From Octopus vulgaris (Eukaryota): DNA of 64,000 nucleotides. Positions 35,435-53,886 of the stretch are shown piece by piece. The notes under the pieces are model-generated. The model saw only the letters and a program-made list of their open reading frames with translations, made no database searches and was not told where the DNA came from. The stretch covers positions 89,094,001-89,158,000 of the forward strand of contig OX597822.1 in assembly GCA_951406725.2 (NCBI GenBank). Reading direction: 5' to 3'. Both the position numbers and the translations under genes were made by a program. How positions within the stretch are numbered: the first letter of the stretch is position 1; each line of letters starts with the position of its first letter.

Positions 35435-35974
35435 GTTACATTGATTCACTTCTATTTTTGTTTGTTATATATTTATAAACTAAAACACAACTGAATATCC
35501 CATACACTTAGCTATAATTTATAGCTAAATACCATTAGGATGAACACCCCACTGGTGTAAGCAGTGTAGACGCTATTCTTCTTAGTTGGTTGAAATAGCT
35601 TTAAAGAAAGAACAAAAGTGCAATAGGAGAATTCTTTAAACTTCTTAGAGCCATGGAAGCTCTACTAAACTTTTCAAAACAGTCTACAATTTTGAAAGAG
35701 ACAGGTTGTGTATATAGGAATCAGTTTTAAAAGATCCTACTCAAATTAGATTCAATCACCTCCTTCTTTCCATATCCCAAATTCATCCATATCCCATCAA
35801 TTTACAAGATATTTTCTATCCCAGTTATGTATTTTTAGTATCACAACAAATGAATGCTGTCTTTAAATACCATCTTGCTTGGCAGTGTGACCAAAATGTT
35901 ATTAGGTAAAATAACTATTTCCTGTGTAAATGTTTCCTTTCTAACACATGGTTAATATCTAATCTTCACCTTAC

Positions 35975-36795
35975 TGATGCTGCCAGTAAGGTGAAGGTTG
36001 GCAATGAGTATAGCAATGAATTCAGTTTACAAGTAGGAGTTCATCAAGGCTCAGTTCTCAACCCTCTCCTGTTTATCTTAGTCCTCAGGCAATTCAAGAC
36101 CGGCTGTCCCTGGGAGTTCTTCTATGCTGATGACCATGTTTTTATAGCTGAATCACTACCTGACCTAGAGAAAAAATTTTAAGTGTGGAAACAAGGTCTG
36201 GAATCTAAGAGCCTTAGAGTTCATTTAGCAAAAACCAAACCAAAGTCCTAGTGAGTAGGGAAACAGACAAATCACAAGTCCCTTCTGGGAGATGGCCCTG
36301 TTCAATATGTAAGAAGGTTGTTGGTAGAAACTCCATACATTGTACCCAGTGCAAGGTTTGGACACATAAGAGGTGTAGTGGTATCACACGAAGGTTAACG
36401 GAGGATATAGTCTTTGTGTATGGCACATGTGCAGGTACAGTAAGTGCTAAAAATGCACAGACAATAGGCTCCCTCAAATACTTGGTGGGATTTTTAGAAA
36501 TAGTTGATAGCTTCTGTTACCTAGGAGACCAAGTTAGCAGTGGTAGAGGAAGTTTGGAAAGTGTAGTTACTAGAATAAGAATGGCCTGAGCAAAGTTCAG
36601 AGAGCTTCTGCCTTTGTTAGTAATTGAGAGTGAAAGGCAGGTTGTATGATGCCTGTATATGGTCAGCTATATTACATGGCAGTGAAACATGGACTTGCGA
36701 AGGCTTAGAAATGAAGCTAGCATGCTCCACTGGATGGGTAATGTCTGTGCATGCATGACAGATTTAAGAGGAAAATAGGATATAAGAGGCATCAG
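35975..36795 (+). mobile_element. RTE LINE RT fragment
   Basis: VGVHQGSVLNPLLF, FFYADD, WPCSICKK, FCYLGD. Confidence 0.9.
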
Positions 36796-37405
36796 ATTTT
36801 TTAGAAATTTCTGTCAGCTTGCTTTTGAGACGCGTGCTTATAGTGATAAATTATATAGTTATTGACGATTAAGTCTATTTCAGCATATTTGGCATTGAAA
36901 TTTTTTTCTTGTGCCCTTGTTTATAAGTTGTTTATAAATTTAACCTTTAATGGTATTTTTTTAATATGCTGGCCATTGATAAAATTTTTTCGAAAATTTT
37001 ATCCTATATTAGATGTGAATTTAATACTATTCACTTCCGGACTCTTTCTATGAGAATTTTCAGTCCGATCACACGTGTCTCGAGGTATGGTGTGGAATTT
37101 CTATTTTGGATATATTTGGGGTACTTAAGTGTGTTCATGACTTAGTGTTTACTTCTTCCATGGGTACAAGTAAGTATTTCATTTATTTTCTTATCATATT
37201 TATCGCTGATGACAAGAAAATTCTAAATGAATTAACTCAGAAATTGAGACCAATCTGATAATAACAAAATTTTTTAGAAATTTCTATCGGCTTGCTTTTG
37301 AGACGTGTGCTTATAGTGATAAATTATATGGTTATTGATGATTAAGTCTATTTCAGCATATTTGGCATTGAAATTTTTTTCTTTTGCCCTTGTTTATAAG
37401 TTGTT

Positions 37406-37409
<4 letters not shown>
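36796..37409 (+). mobile_element. Partial tandem (473-bp period) Penelope-pLTR/retrozyme-like element
   Basis: ~140-bp direct repeats at 36796-36936 and 37269-37409; hammerhead just before the second copy; ends in (TA)n. Confidence 0.8.
37201..37260 (+). ncRNA. Type I hammerhead with eroded stem II
   Basis: tatcg-CTGATGA-caag..aattc taaat gaatt..ctca-GAAA-ttg-agac-caa-TC-tgata. Confidence 0.7.
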
Positions 37410-37465
<56 letters not shown>

Positions 37466-37569
37466 CAAAATGGGACAAGAATGCAAAACATCCGGACAAC
37501 TAAGTGATACAAAAAGGGACAACAAAACATCCAGATAGACGATACAAAAAACACGGACAGGTCATTCAA

Positions 37570-37635
37570 AGCCTTTAATCTTCAGTCAAGAACTGGATCA
37601 TCCTCGCAATTTCGGCTGATTAATCTTGAGATTGC
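37570..37635 (-). ncRNA. Candidate permuted/pseudoknotted hammerhead
   Basis: Minus strand: gcaa-TC-tcaaga-ttaatc-agcc-GAAA-ttgc-(14 nt)-tcttga-CTGAAGA-ttaaa-ggct. Stems I, II and III pair perfectly. Confidence 0.6.
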
Positions 37636-37733
37636 TCCAATCTGACCAGCCCCAAGGGAAAACTAAGCTAAGAGGTTATACATACATACATACATACATA
37701 CATACATAAATATAAGTATACATACACCCTATG

Positions 37734-45327: not shown

Positions 45328-46013
45328 CAATATTTGGTCATCAATGACTAGTCCACTTGTTTTTTAACTTTAATAGGGTTCGGTTTTTCTTGGGGTGAGT
45401 TGAAGGCTCATAAAGATAATGCTCTGTTGTCATCATCTTCATTGTTGTTAACTAAATATTTATGTTCTGTGTTTGTGTGTGTGTGTGTATGTATGTATTA
45501 TGAAACCAACTTCAAAAATGAACACATATCCAACAACCCCTTCATAAAATTAAGTAAAACAAAACCAAATACCAACAGAACGGAACAACCACCAAGAAAT
45601 CCAAACACACCCTACACCAGAAAAATACATTTAAAACGCACTCCACACTACCTTCACCAACCCCAAAACACTTACAGGGGCCCACCACACCATTTCAAGA
45701 ACCAAAGGGCTACAACATACAATTCTATGAAATACAATCCACATAACCAAACTAAGACTCCACCACCAAACATCTACCCTAGGAACCAACCATACAAACC
45801 TAACAAACAACAAATACACTACGGAAGAAACAACTACCAACACAATATACCTGATAAACTAAGACGGAACACGAGGTACAAAAACACACTACAAAACAGA
45901 GCCCCACAAACTCACTCTGAAAATTATAACAACAGGAGACAGATAAACAGTATTTTTCAACATAACTACACCAACCATTTTTTAGACCTAACACACAGGA
46001 ACAGGGACACACG

Positions 46014-48356
46014 ATGGCAAAGGACAAACAAAGGAAACCACAGGTAATTAAAATAATCAATCTCTCGAATAAAGAACTTACACCTAACGAATTAAGCATA
46101 CTCTCCAAAGGACTTAAATTTACACCAACCCCACAACGTTCTAATTACTATGAAATGAAAGATGATATTTTGGAATTTTGTAGGAAACTAAGACTTACCG
46201 AGGAATTTCATGGCAAACAAATAGATGATGAATCAATAGCTAGAAACAACAGCAATTACACCCCTACCAAGGGAAAGAATAAAGTCTTAGACCGCTATTG
46301 TGACTACATAACTAATTTCCCTTTTCAATTCACCAAGAAACAAAAACACAGCCAAAACTTTAACAAAAGAGAATGGAACGACCTCATCAAACTAAGAGAA
46401 GACAAAACAATAACAATTAAGGAGGCAGATAAGGGCAACGCGGTAGTATTAATGAATACAAACGATTATAAAAATTTAGTGCTATCCCTATTAAGAGATG
46501 AAACGTATTATGAAAGGGTCCAACAGTATAATCAGCCAAAAATAATGTATAACCTCAGGACATTAATCAACACATACCGAGAAGGACTCATGGACAAGGA
46601 GTACGAATACATCACTAACTTTAAGTGCAAATCAAGTTTGTTCTACGATATCCCTAAAGTCCACAAAAGCCAAATAATTAGTGAAACATGCAAAACATCT
46701 ACCGATATACTCATCAAAATCCCTTCACCAAATGATCTTAAACTTAGACCGATAATAGCAGGCCCAGCATGTGAAACTCACTGCCTCAGCAATTTCTTAG
46801 ACACACTTCTTAAACCTTTCCTAAAGCACATCAAAAACTACGTAAGAGACGATATAGACATGCTTAACCACCTCCCAAAAACAGTCAATGAGAAAACCCT
46901 TCTAGTATCCTTCGACGTAATTAACCTTTATTCAAACATCCCTCACACCCTAGGAATAGAAGCGATCACTTTCTGGCTAAATAACTACTCCTTTGAACTC
47001 CCAACTCGCATAAAGAAAGAACTTATAATAGAAGGACTTAGATTTATTTTTGAAAACAATTACTTTATTTTTGACAATAATTTCTACAGACAAAGATCGG
47101 GAACAGCGATGGGCACGCGTACTGCGCCTTCTTTTGCCAACTTAGTGATGGGATACCTCGAGAAAATACTCTACCAGATAACACTCGAGAAATATGGAAA
47201 CACCTTCTCCACCTATATCCAGAACAACTGGAAAAGATACCTCGACGACTGCTTTATCCTCTGGGATAAAAGTATAGAGAAACTTGAGGAATTTAAAATA
47301 CTATTAAATGGTATAAATGATAATATACAGTTCACGATGGATCATAACGAAGAAGAATTACCATTTTTAGACATCCTCATTAAGAAAGTCGGCAACAAAA
47401 TAGAGACAGATATCTATTATAAACCGACAGACTCCAAGCAGTACCTACCCTTTGATTCATGCCACCCAAGACACACTAGAATAAATGTCCCTTTTTGTTT
47501 AGCTAGAAGGATTTGCACCATAATATCAGACACAAACACCCGACACATACGTCTCCAGGAACTTAGAACTATACTCATAAATAGAAATTATCCACTGCCC
47601 CTAATAGACAGTGCAATCCAACGGGCACTTAAATTAAGTATAGAAGACCTGAGACAAACAAAACCAAAAAAGAAAGAAAAATTAAAAACCCTTCCCTACA
47701 TCTCTACACACAACCCACTTAACAATGAGGCCTTCAGCACCGTACTACAAAGCACAGCCCTACTAAAGGGAGACCCAAAGATGAACCGGATCCTCGAAAC
47801 ACACACCATCATTAAAAGTAAATGGCAACCAAAATCCTTGAAAAGGATTTTAACCCAAGCTAAACTGCACTCAACATCAACCACAAAATCAGCAGTTAGA
47901 AAATGTGGAAAGCCCAACTGCGGGATCTGTGTCATCTTGGTAGAAGGTTCAGAATTTATACTAGAACAAGGCCATCAGTTCACCATTAGAACAAACTTCA
48001 CCTGTGCATCAGAAAACTTAATTTACGTCTTAACATGCGCAGGTTGCAGTAGGCAGTATATAGGCCATACAAAAAATAGCTTATGTAAAAGGATGGCGGT
48101 GCATAAATCCCAAATTAGAAACCCTGAATACCGGAAAATACCAGTCAGCGGACACATAGATAGATGTGCTTCAAATGAAAAACGGAAATTTACAACTTAC
48201 CCACTTTACAAATTCAGTGACAGCATAACCTTCACCCAATGCCAAAATAAAGAACTTTATTTCATCAAAAAATTTAGACCAAGTTTGAACACCCTGGGCC
48301 AACAAAACATTGGTCTTCCAAAAAGGAAAAATGAAATTCTACCACAACCACCATGA
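46014..48356 (+). CDS. Penelope-like RT + GIY-YIG endonuclease, 780 aa, uninterrupted
   Basis: LSKGLKFTP, IKEADKG, LRPIIAG, SFDVINLY, GTAMG, RYLDD, LPFLD, YYKPT, CxxxxCxxC linker, LIYVLTC..C..QYIGHT. Confidence 0.95.
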   Translation: MAKDKQRKPQVIKIINLSNKELTPNELSILSKGLKFTPTPQRSNYYEMKDDILEFCRKLRLTEEFHGKQIDDESIARNNSNYTPTKGKNKVLDRYCDYITNFPFQFTKKQKHSQNFNKREWNDLIKLREDKTITIKEADKGNAVVLMNTNDYKNLVLSLLRDETYYERVQQYNQPKIMYNLRTLINTYREGLMDKEYEYITNFKCKSSLFYDIPKVHKSQIISETCKTSTDILIKIPSPNDLKLRPIIAGPACETHCLSNFLDTLLKPFLKHIKNYVRDDIDMLNHLPKTVNEKTLLVSFDVINLYSNIPHTLGIEAITFWLNNYSFELPTRIKKELIIEGLRFIFENNYFIFDNNFYRQRSGTAMGTRTAPSFANLVMGYLEKILYQITLEKYGNTFSTYIQNNWKRYLDDCFILWDKSIEKLEEFKILLNGINDNIQFTMDHNEEELPFLDILIKKVGNKIETDIYYKPTDSKQYLPFDSCHPRHTRINVPFCLARRICTIISDTNTRHIRLQELRTILINRNYPLPLIDSAIQRALKLSIEDLRQTKPKKKEKLKTLPYISTHNPLNNEAFSTVLQSTALLKGDPKMNRILETHTIIKSKWQPKSLKRILTQAKLHSTSTTKSAVRKCGKPNCGICVILVEGSEFILEQGHQFTIRTNFTCASENLIYVLTCAGCSRQYIGHTKNSLCKRMAVHKSQIRNPEYRKIPVSGHIDRCASNEKRKFTTYPLYKFSDSITFTQCQNKELYFIKKFRPSLNTLGQQNIGLPKRKNEILPQPP

Positions 48357-49219
48357 CCACTACGACTGCTTCCACTATCACTACTACTACAACCACCATG
48401 GTCACTACTATTGCTGCTACAATCAACAGTCCTCTACTGCTGCTACGGCCACAGTGTGAGAATTAAAATAGTAAAAAAAGGGTGGAGGTGGGGGGAATTA
48501 CAGTTTCTCAGATCTGTAAACAGTCGCTTCCGCTTGCAGTGGTATGTTTTAGGGAAAGATGAATTTATAAAAAATTTTTTTCTGCGAGCAAATCTGATTT
48601 TGATTCGTTAAAAAATTGATGACGTTTTTCTTCCATGGTCAAGCTTGTTGTTCTGCTTGGTTGGTTTCCTTGCAGGATACAGTTATAGATCATTCCGGTT
48701 TGTTGGTTCTCTTAAAGGGTCTTTTCCTTGTATTCGTTGAAGTTTGGTTTTGATTGGTTTGGAATTATGTGACATCAGTGAACAGTGCCAATGAACAGTG
48801 TCACTACTATTGCTGCCAAGATCAACAGTCCTCTACTGCTGCTGCTGCTACGGCCACAGCTTAACTGCTACAACCCCAACCACCACCACCAAGGTTGCCA
48901 AAATTACGACCAACAGTAACTGCTGCTACTGCCATCTGCTGCTAGGACAGCCACAACCAATAAGCTACTGCGACCCCAACCACCACCACGGTTATTACTA
49001 CTACGACCAACAATCACTACTGCTACTACCATTCCATTGTAACACAAGGAAACAAAAGAAAGGTTCCTTTTGATGCCAGCAAGAAACAATAATGAACTTC
49101 TTCACTACACTCAACTGTAATATAGCGATTATACCAACTACCGACAAAACACCACCACATGGATTCTATTGAGACCAGTAAGAAACGATTATGAACTTTT
49201 CTATTGCACTTTTTATAAT

Positions 49220-49264
49220 ATTTTTGATAAAGTTCGTTTTTTCAAGAACCGAAACATGTAAAAT
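49220..49264 (+). ncRNA. Minimal hammerhead, U3-A8 core variant
   Basis: attt-TTGATAA-agttc...gaacc-GAAAC-at-GTA-aaat. Confidence 0.65.
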
Positions 49265-52154: not shown

Positions 52155-53075
52155 TTTGAATCCATTATGGCACTTACCTAGCATACCTGTTTAGATCACC
52201 TGTGAACTAAACCCCCATACTTTGTATACATGTATATATATATACATATATATATGTATATATATATATATATGTTACCCTGTAACTATCATGTAACTTC
52301 CACCCTGGGACCATCTGCCCTCTACAAACCCATTGTAGAAGTTCTTGCATAATTTATAAATGCACCGTCCTCAACACGCTAAACAGTTCTACAACCATAT
52401 TATATAGGGTCAACTATAAATTTCAAATAGTGATATGCTCTGCATCTCAGTTCTTTTAGATATGAGTAACACAGTAAATCTACAACACTTTCCAGTCACA
52501 TACATCATCTCAAAAATAGAAATATTCCATACATCTTGTCATGGTCTATAATAGATTCACGGCTTCCACACCAGGGTGAACACTCAGCCTGTAAGTTATG
52601 CCTAAAAGATGCATTCTACATATTAAAACACAACTCTTCAATACTACTAAATAAATATAATGAGGCCCTAGGTACATGCAACCACCGCTTTTTTCATACG
52701 TTCAAATTTTACCACAAATCTAAATGCAACCTAAATAACCATGCAGTACATATCCTGAACACCCCTTAGGCAATCTCCAGTAACCCTACTTTACTTTCCA
52801 TTGTCTCTAGTACTTATAGAATAAGTACTAGGCTTACAAAGAATAAGTCCTGGGGTTGATTTACTCGACTAGAAGGCGGTGCTCCAGCATGGCCACAATC
52901 AAATGACTGAAACAAGTAAAAGAGTAAAAGAGAGAGAGATATATAGATATGTGTATATATGTATACCAGTGCTAATTGCATGAAATATGTAAAAAAAAAA
53001 GACAAGGGGAAAACAAGTGAAATACATAAACAATGAGAAAAAATGGAAAACAGGACAAGTTAACACAGAGAAAAG

Positions 53076-53138
53076 ACCCTTCATCAGTTGTCAGCTGTCT
53101 GTCTACTCCTCATTTCAAGCATTCAACAACAATATGAG
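53076..53138 (-). ncRNA. Candidate permuted/pseudoknotted hammerhead, second copy
   Basis: Minus strand: ctca-TA-ttgttg-ttgaa-tgctt-GAAA-tgag-(15 nt)-tgacaa-CTGATGA-agggt. Confidence 0.55.
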
Positions 53139-53886
53139 TCTTTAATGACAGTTGCTCCCATAAATTCTAAAATAAAATTTAGGATTTATGGAGGCTCAAA
53201 GTTGGGAAAAAGAAAATGACAGTTGAGACATACAATGAAACCGAATGAAAACAAACATGAAGGGTTGTTAGACCAGAACAAGAGGAAAATAGTGAATGCT
53301 GAGAAAAAAATACTTTCTTTTTGAAAAGAAAAAGATAGAAGAGAGAGAGAGAAAAAAACATGACCCTTGTTTAAACATCTATGCCAGAAAAGAAAGATGA
53401 TATATAAATGTATATAGGCGCAGGAGTGGCTGTGTGGTAAGTAGCTTGCTTACCAACCACATGGTTCCGGGTTCACTCCCATTGCGTGGCACCTTGGGCA
53501 AGTGTCTTCTACTATAGCCTTGGGCCGACCAAAGCCTTGTGAGTGGATTTGGTAGACAGAAACTGAAAGAAGCCCGTTGTATATATGTATATATATGTGC
53601 GTCTGTGTTTGTCCCCACAACATCGCTTGACAACCGATGCTGGTGTGTTTATGTTCCCGTAACCTAGAGGTTCGGCAAAAGAGACCGATAGAATAAGTAC
53701 TAGGCTTACAAAGAATAAGTCCTGGGGGTCGATTTCCTCGATTAAAGGCGGTGCTCCAGCATGGCCGCAGTCAAATGATTGAAACAAGTAAAAGAGTATA
53801 TATATGTGCTCTGTTTTTGGCGCAAAACAAAACCAGTTCCACAGTCAGAGTTTAATGTGAGAGTTATGGATTATAACCTGGAAGAC

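Follow-up and report, generated by a model that had tools for sequence, protein, structure and literature searches.

A hammerhead-type motif, predicted to be opened between A9 and G10.1 and likely self-cleaving, in Penelope-like repeats of Octopus vulgaris

Penelope-like repeats of Octopus vulgaris carry a hammerhead-type motif in which the chain is most likely opened between A9 and G10.1, and this core-opened fold probably cuts the RNA of the element after an AUC triplet. The copy described here lies in a 64,000-nucleotide stretch of contig OX597822.1 (assembly GCA_951406725.2, positions 89,094,001 to 89,158,000 of the forward strand; hereafter the window, with positions counted from its first letter). 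Judged by sequence comparison, the motif is a real and conserved hammerhead-type structure that resembles the type-SGC permutation but fails to keep the intact block C of that type. The case is built on the sequence itself, copy numbers, pairings that covary across lineages, the linkage of one repeat family (family C) to the ends of Naiad open reading frames (ORFs) and a step in the distribution of insertion breakpoints, all of which are observed.

The window copy belongs to a 5'-truncated tail of a non-coding Penelope-like repeat (family A; 37459..37676, minus strand), which is set between (TA)n and (TATG)n microsatellites and is 95% identical to locus L020 over 215 bp. The whole motif spans 37563-37651, and all parts lie on the minus strand. 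Read 5' to 3', the 3' half of a hairpin, P1 (37652..37676), precedes the 5' strand of stem II (37646..37651), the first G of which is G10.1 and the partner of which is 37619-37614. Linker 1 (37636..37645) then leads into block S (37624..37635), comprising a stem III strand (37635-37632), U16.1-C17 (UC, 37631-37630) and a stem I strand (37629-37624), and block G (37606..37619) follows with the stem II 3' strand, GAAA (37613-37610) and the stem III partner (37609-37606). A 14-nt linker 3 (37592..37605) separates block G from the stem I partner (37591-37586) and CUGAAGA, that is C3 to A9 (37585-37579; together 37579..37591), after which the sequence continues UUAAA-GGCU, with GGCU inside the 3' strand of a closing helix, P0 (37563..37576). 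Linker 1 pairs with linker 3, which bears the 3' strand of the resulting helix P4, in a register that is uncertain in the A lineage. The cut is predicted between 37630 and 37629.

Stem I of this copy has six Watson-Crick pairs, and stem III has four pairs plus A15.1-U16.1. Every part claimed by the first-pass annotation of this DNA carries the letters and the place given for it, and the UC site, CUGAAGA, GAAA and stems I and III do make up a complete core; the same class core (CUGAnGA, GAAA, UH) is seen in 14 representatives, for which the core motifs were part of the search pattern and selection. Truncation has removed the 5' half of P1 and the 5' strand of P0, leaving the P0 3' strand partnerless, and the window copy is probably a weakened relic. 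Its nested fold has a z of -0.69, which is uninformative because a pseudoknot in a truncated copy is being scored. A second putative ribozyme of the same layout, diverged and decayed, lies at 53063..53204 (minus strand, U16.1 at 53134) and is treated as lineage E.

Standard descriptors pass the motif over, as had been anticipated. An Rfam scan of the window at E<=5 gave no hammerhead among the 150 matches listed of 182, and we rejected the listed matches as microsatellite artefacts; at the gathering score, nothing was returned for hammerhead in eight family loci. A descriptor for the S-G-C order (minimum lengths 5 bp for stem I, 4 bp for stem III and 5 bp for the upstream stem II) found two matches in the window against none in 60 shuffled windows, in which a single core-only match occurred. 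Equal frequency in shuffled sequence had been named as fatal to the claim, and it is not seen. Across the genome the core sequence has 2,866 exact copies and its reversed control has none. A GAAA-before-CUGAUGA pattern gave 4,706 matches against 435 in the control, and a pattern derived from Naiads (family C) gave 567 against 7.

The strand order S, G, CUGAnGA places the motif outside types I, II and III (CGS, GSC and SCG), in which the stems nest, as the first-pass annotation had recognized. Its accompanying statement that no natural example had been described fails for the order as drawn, because this order is type-SGC, which Eckert et al. 2023 (PMC10085705) had already published and validated in vitro. 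In the parts of that paper available to us, 583 type-SGC sequences and only two type-CSG sequences are reported, both types cleave in vitro, and rates for type-SGC range from 0.007 to 0.19 per min. There, CUGAnGA is held to be inseparable from its flanking stem I and stem II strands, which leaves six possible block orders, and known hammerhead alignments are said to have no more than 1-2 nt inserted between CUGAnGA and the stems. The octopus motif shares with types SGC, CSG and GCS, as those parts describe them, the ring order S-G-C, three crossing stems and a full core. Like type-SGC, it connects stem I to stem II by a short linker and joins the far ends of these stems by an additional helix, here P4, which is weak in the A lineage. 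Unlike type-SGC, it has its stem II 5' strand ahead of the whole core, and block C is split at A9/G10.1 and closed by P0 and P1. A stem II strand within 1-2 nt after CUGAnGA is not found; the partner lies upstream, and family D only has a weak downstream alternative of 4 bp (two of them G-U) at +1. The accessible part of the supplement to PMC10085705 contains neither octopus nor Acropora, and Penelope appears there in the references only.

With the partner of the pre-GAAA strand lying upstream of the cut site, the chain is predicted to be opened between A9 and G10.1; in this layout stems I, II and III all cross one another. An intact copy reads, 5' to 3', P0 strand, P1 hairpin, stem II strand, linker, III-UH-I, short linker, II-GAAA-III, linker, I-CUGAnGA and P0 partner; the GGCU region belongs to P0, whose other strand lies about 40 nt upstream of stem II, the gap being filled by the P1 hairpin. 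The earlier reading had instead formed stem II with GGCU after a 5-nt insertion, which is most likely wrong. That 4-bp stem can be drawn, but GGCU sits in a P0 of 14-15 bp in intact copies, and a 6-bp partner (37651-37646) lies just beyond the coordinates that had been annotated. Calculated duplex energies are -8.3 kcal/mol for the upstream stem II and -4.2 kcal/mol for the downstream partner. GGCU has been lost in the young tandem family B2 and is absent from the coral-type family.

To compare lineages we drew on a wider sample. Families C, D, F and G came from searches with the GAAA-before-CUGAUGA pattern, the Naiad-derived pattern and one further pattern, and the coral-type family K came from one metagenome scan. 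The repeat is also present in contig sets of four organisms from public sequencing runs. Lineages with little stem sequence in common retain CUGAnGA, GAAA and UH, the core being part of the search pattern, and stems I, II and III flank the core with covariation support. When strands were swapped among seven lineages, stem II with its own upstream partner ranked 1 of 5040 permutations, whereas the downstream partner ranked 268 of 5040, a borderline value; P4 ranked 3 and P0 33 of 5040, and stems I and III ranked 2 and 4 of 5040, both of these being selection criteria as well. These ranks are not true probabilities, because well-preserved copies were chosen and the lineages may be related by descent. 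Of the 14 representatives, 13 have an upstream stem II of 5-6 bp. Among metagenome loci (L177 was excluded from the structure scans and counts), an S-G-C core occurs in 34 of 118; in 21 of the 34 the upstream stem II reaches 5 bp or more, and in none does a downstream stem II of 4 bp or longer lie within 6 nt. In viral contigs, none of 22 pattern matches contained the core.

Within the A lineage, 10 aligned copies show two-sided change in 9 of 47 pairs, compared with 1.8 in shuffles and 1-3 in slid controls. The covariation that the first-pass annotation had proposed as a check is thus borne out for the stems of the revised layout but not for its own stem II, which has no two-sided change among the 10 relatives; the upstream partner has one two-sided and two one-sided changes. 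In B2, P0 has been kept by compensatory change across the five tandem units of L307 though the downstream GGCU is gone.

These data bear on the possibility that the motif is an ordinary type-SGC hammerhead as first drawn, with a GGCU stem II across a 5-nt bulge and the upstream strand serving as a competitor that switches it off. Type-SGC is proven active in the portion of PMC10085705 at hand, truncation leaves the GGCU strand free in the window copy, and several lineages still have a weak downstream partner: 4 bp of Watson-Crick pairs at +5 in A and B, 5 bp with one G-U in A3, and weak, G-U-rich forms in C and D. That partner is nonetheless absent in B2, E, G, K1 and K2 and far off in F, its spacing varies from 0 to +17, and it shows no two-sided change, is taken up by P0 in intact copies and occurs in none of the 34 metagenome cores. 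We therefore consider this reading quite unlikely; a second fold that uses the downstream partner may exist beside the core-opened one.

The helices that close the opened core were defined by a joint search for P0 and P1. The nested minimum-energy fold of the intact copy L028 already includes P0, P1 and the upstream stem II, and for 10 of 17 representatives no more than 4 of 200 shuffles gave a P0 and P1 as good. Significance was not reached by families C and G, by G2, D3 and A4 or by the truncated window copy; for C2 the count was 8 of 200. The start of P0 is at most 2 nt from A9, and the end of P1 at most 2 nt from G10.1; no junction base is unpaired in A3, D, D2, D4, K1 and K2, nor in G, where the helices are not significant, and in A and B a 2x2 mismatch sits at the foot of P0. 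A joint of this kind could place P0 on P1 and stem II on the G12-A9 pair and so hold the catalytic core in position. Where no base is unpaired, the geometry we infer is a four-way junction in which this stacking of stem II would persist as the backbone crosses over. P4, which pairs the two long linkers with each other, would hold stems I and II together. It is the weakest helix in the A lineage, with 83% of positions paired, no two-sided change and two possible registers; an extension of stem III as the linker helix was considered for this lineage and could not be separated from the P4 register.

Given three crossing stems, a strained topology, and the frequent tandem arrangement of copies, cleavage could be imagined to occur only in dimers or in trans, with strands swapped between tandem units; the minimal hammerheads of Penelope-like elements (PLEs) are thought to be dimeric in the accessible part of PMC4209133. 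Stems I and III are, however, full-length and non-palindromic in every lineage, so that a monomer has all its partners, and P0 and P4 close the domain inside one unit. An obligate dimer is accordingly highly unlikely. As for a chance look-alike amplified passively by the repeat, a short motif may arise by chance and then be copied, but the layout is found again, built from different stem sequences, in at least seven lineages and, by eye, in Naiad consensus sequences from three phyla. Together with the shuffled windows, covariation across lineages effectively refutes this explanation, and we regard it as next to impossible.

Several matches of other kinds turned up in the same searches. Family F (L323, L325, L336, L337, L339-L351) is a short repeat that combines the core-opened layout with a second CUGAAGA upstream and a second GAAA downstream; the doubled motifs are possibly overlapping or relic ribozymes, and a G-run in the stem II strand is highly unstable. 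CUGAUGA followed by CGAAAC 40-65 nt on has 10,538 matches in the genome against 633 in the control, and most of those listed (L309-L338) resemble minimal type I hammerheads with a very long stem II, in several families. One plain type-SGC descriptor match, with stems of 7, 6 and 7 bp and no insertion, occurs in L051 (about 1648-1740, on the minus of the GIY-YIG strand); it is a single copy and overlaps the GIY-YIG region.

The motif resides in repeats with the habit of Penelope-like elements. A DNA search of the 2.8-Gb genome returned 3,253 first-look candidates, of which the top 40 are 95-100% identical, and the copies show variable 5' truncation, insertion inside (TA)n, head-to-tail as well as inverted arrangement and a short tail at the end. 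Craig et al. (PMC8557442, as far as its text was accessible) describe such features as hallmarks of PLEs, and each of them is found here. The tandem units are non-coding, and no ORF was found in the A, B and B2 units examined: about 800 bp in family A (L020), about 770 bp in family B (L067/L282-L284), the top 40 matches of which are 99-100% identical, and five units of about 724 bp in B2 (L307). As far as sequence allows, families A, B, B2, D, F and G are placed as Penelope-like, and a Naiad placement is suggested for family C only. A genome search for GIY-YIG domains did not yield an autonomous, ORF-bearing partner of families A and B. An active element with a C-terminal endonuclease (781-aa ORFs) was considered and set aside: its repeat bears a minimal type I-like motif, with no link to the ribozyme described here.

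Unit starts in L020 and L307 consist of the short tail, a GTAAGT motif resembling a splice donor and a long CT-rich tract. The last two are presumably reminiscent of the Penelope 5' intron. Other elements lie nearby in the window, all on the plus strand. The family A copy is inserted in the (TA)n that ends a different Penelope-like repeat, which carries a decayed canonical type I hammerhead at 37200-37262 (CUGAUGA at 37206, GAAA at 37240); the tail of this repeat is duplicated at about 36800-36935 and 37270-37410, and L042 holds a better-kept relative. An open Penelope-like ORF of 780 aa with reverse transcriptase and C-terminal GIY-YIG occupies 45966-48305 and is 91% identical to a family that is active, has an upstream ORF and is represented by many 781-aa copies. 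The repeat end of this element, at about 49200-49260, is minimal type I-like, with a UUGAUAA core (U3-A8 covariant) and a palindromic stem III. Decayed reverse-transcriptase-like sequence at 35950-36790 is, by eye, probably an RTE/LINE fragment.

Three known systems invite comparison, each as presented in the portions of the sources we could consult. Naiads (PMC8557442) likewise insert into (TA)n, are 5'-truncated, occur in tandem and inverted copies and have a 30-40-bp tail, whereas families A, B and B2 are non-coding. Non-LTR retrozymes (PMC7229834; Li et al. 2026, 10.64898/2026.07.22.740005), which are regarded as non-autonomous PLE derivatives, also form non-coding tandem units with one hammerhead each; theirs are type I hammerheads in units mostly of 150-450 bp (51-972 bp in Li et al.), and here the hammerhead is core-opened, not type I, in units of about 720-800 bp. 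The minimal type I hammerheads in PLE terminal repeats (PMC4209133) share the place in the element and the proposed role, and a single bulged base between A9 and stem II is common among them, but they have the canonical ring order, a tiny palindromic stem III, a dimeric form and no helices at A9/G10.1.

Naiads are of particular relevance: in the available text of Craig et al. 2021 (PMC8557442) they are without canonical hammerheads, and some are flagged as having a core or half core, for which the same text gives no structure. The 3' ends of Naiad_Obim and Naiad_Ovul match family C; that source flags Naiad_Ovul as 'HHR_half_core'. Near ORF-end loci of Naiad type, family C lies 0.85-1.37 kb downstream on the same strand in 11 of 30, the ORF remnants upstream of it having been matched by eye to the PMC8557442 consensus. 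We read 53 of the 54 Naiad consensus ends (the last 260-380 nt) by eye. Six of the 53 (Obim, Ovul, Amil, Aacu, Anas and the ctenophore Bfor) have the core-opened layout, which is thus shared by octopus, coral and ctenophore ends; P0 is clear in coral and ctenophore and weak in octopus. The link between the coral-type family and Naiads rests on the PMC8557442 consensus. Six of the eight nematode ends (Nbra 1-3, Hcon, Hpol and Asuum) are, again by eye, clean type-CSG and have the I-II helix, and in the part displayed the remaining 41 of the 53 are neither core-opened nor type-CSG. Naiads of oyster, scallop, a hemichordate and Clytia have a common GC-rich motif near the 3' end. We take this motif to resemble an HDV-like ribozyme, which suggests replacement of one ribozyme by another within Naiads.

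If it is cut RNA that is copied, insertions should start just after the cut. Counting one row per locus on the minus strand, we found TATATA no more than 30 nt upstream of the GAAA block in 368 A/B loci, only 70 of which retain both bases that precede the cut. Breakpoint density is about 37 per position at or after the cut and 3 before it, a roughly tenfold step, which we estimate to be nearer eightfold because copies mutated in the 8-mer are counted as post-cut. TATATA is joined exactly at the predicted cut in 79 loci, and starts are also frequent at a second hot spot, -11 relative to the cut (8 vs 12 minus-strand loci on C1-C8). Among the loci listed, by eye, 15 of 18 A/B copies and 19 of 22 family D copies start after the cut (p about 1e-7 each under uniform truncation). 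The A/B step is confounded by AT-rich microhomology after the cut, and family D shows the same step without an AT-rich stretch. The step fits cleavage in vivo, and self-cleavage of the motif is considered likely.

The breakpoints could also be read as microhomology or stalling at a fold that is conserved yet non-catalytic or weak, perhaps one that binds protein or signals in reverse transcription. They spread from +1 to +9 rather than falling on one base, and the sequence after the cut is AT-rich in A and B, as such a reading would have it. Against it stand the family D step and the retention of CUGAnGA, GAAA and UH across lineages with dissimilar stems, with the reservation that the core belongs to the search pattern. 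A reverse transcriptase at +7 to +1 would, moreover, already have unwound stems I, II, III and P4, leaving no structure at which to stall. We judge this reading unlikely and favour catalysis by the core-opened fold.

From these observations we infer a mechanism in which the RNA would be cut just after AUC in the terminal repeat of the element, so that cuts in two successive tandem repeats would release RNA of unit length. Such RNA, perhaps circularised as proposed for retrozymes, would be copied into (TA)n by an autonomous Penelope-like element, the presumed partner of families A and B. Copying that runs off the cut end would give many insertions starting just after the cut.

The S-G-C order is already known; what appears to be new is the predicted opening of the SGC/CSG/GCS ring at the A9-G10.1 link. 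A literature search returned no description of the core-opened layout or of helices at A9/G10.1, and the accessible portions of Forgia 2023, Perreault 2011 and PMC6765202 yielded no passage on the layout. In the available text of PMC13725137, Weinberg et al. 2015 is cited for 'variants containing additional helices', and a variant with an extra helix at the A9/G10.1 junction may thus have been described before. On balance we lean towards a broader reading: that the motif is an active hammerhead permutation beyond the six of Eckert et al., pseudoknotted and core-opened with a P0/P1 junction; that it is an ancient terminal ribozyme of Naiads and related PLEs, extending from ctenophores to cephalopods; that it is one of several non-circular forms, with the nematode type-CSG, common in animal genomes; and that its cut sets the start of the RNA that is copied.

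If this is true, the rule of six block orders for the hammerhead would be broken, and a backbone link of the core would apparently be openable when bridged by a helical junction. Non-circular permutations, so far a matter of some hundreds of environmental RNAs, would then number thousands of copies in a single animal genome. The motif offers an answer to the missing canonical hammerheads of Naiads and would thereby reopen the question of self-cleavage as a general trait of Penelope-like elements, and the breakpoint step at the predicted cut would provide a genomic handle on the role of the ribozyme in retrotransposition.
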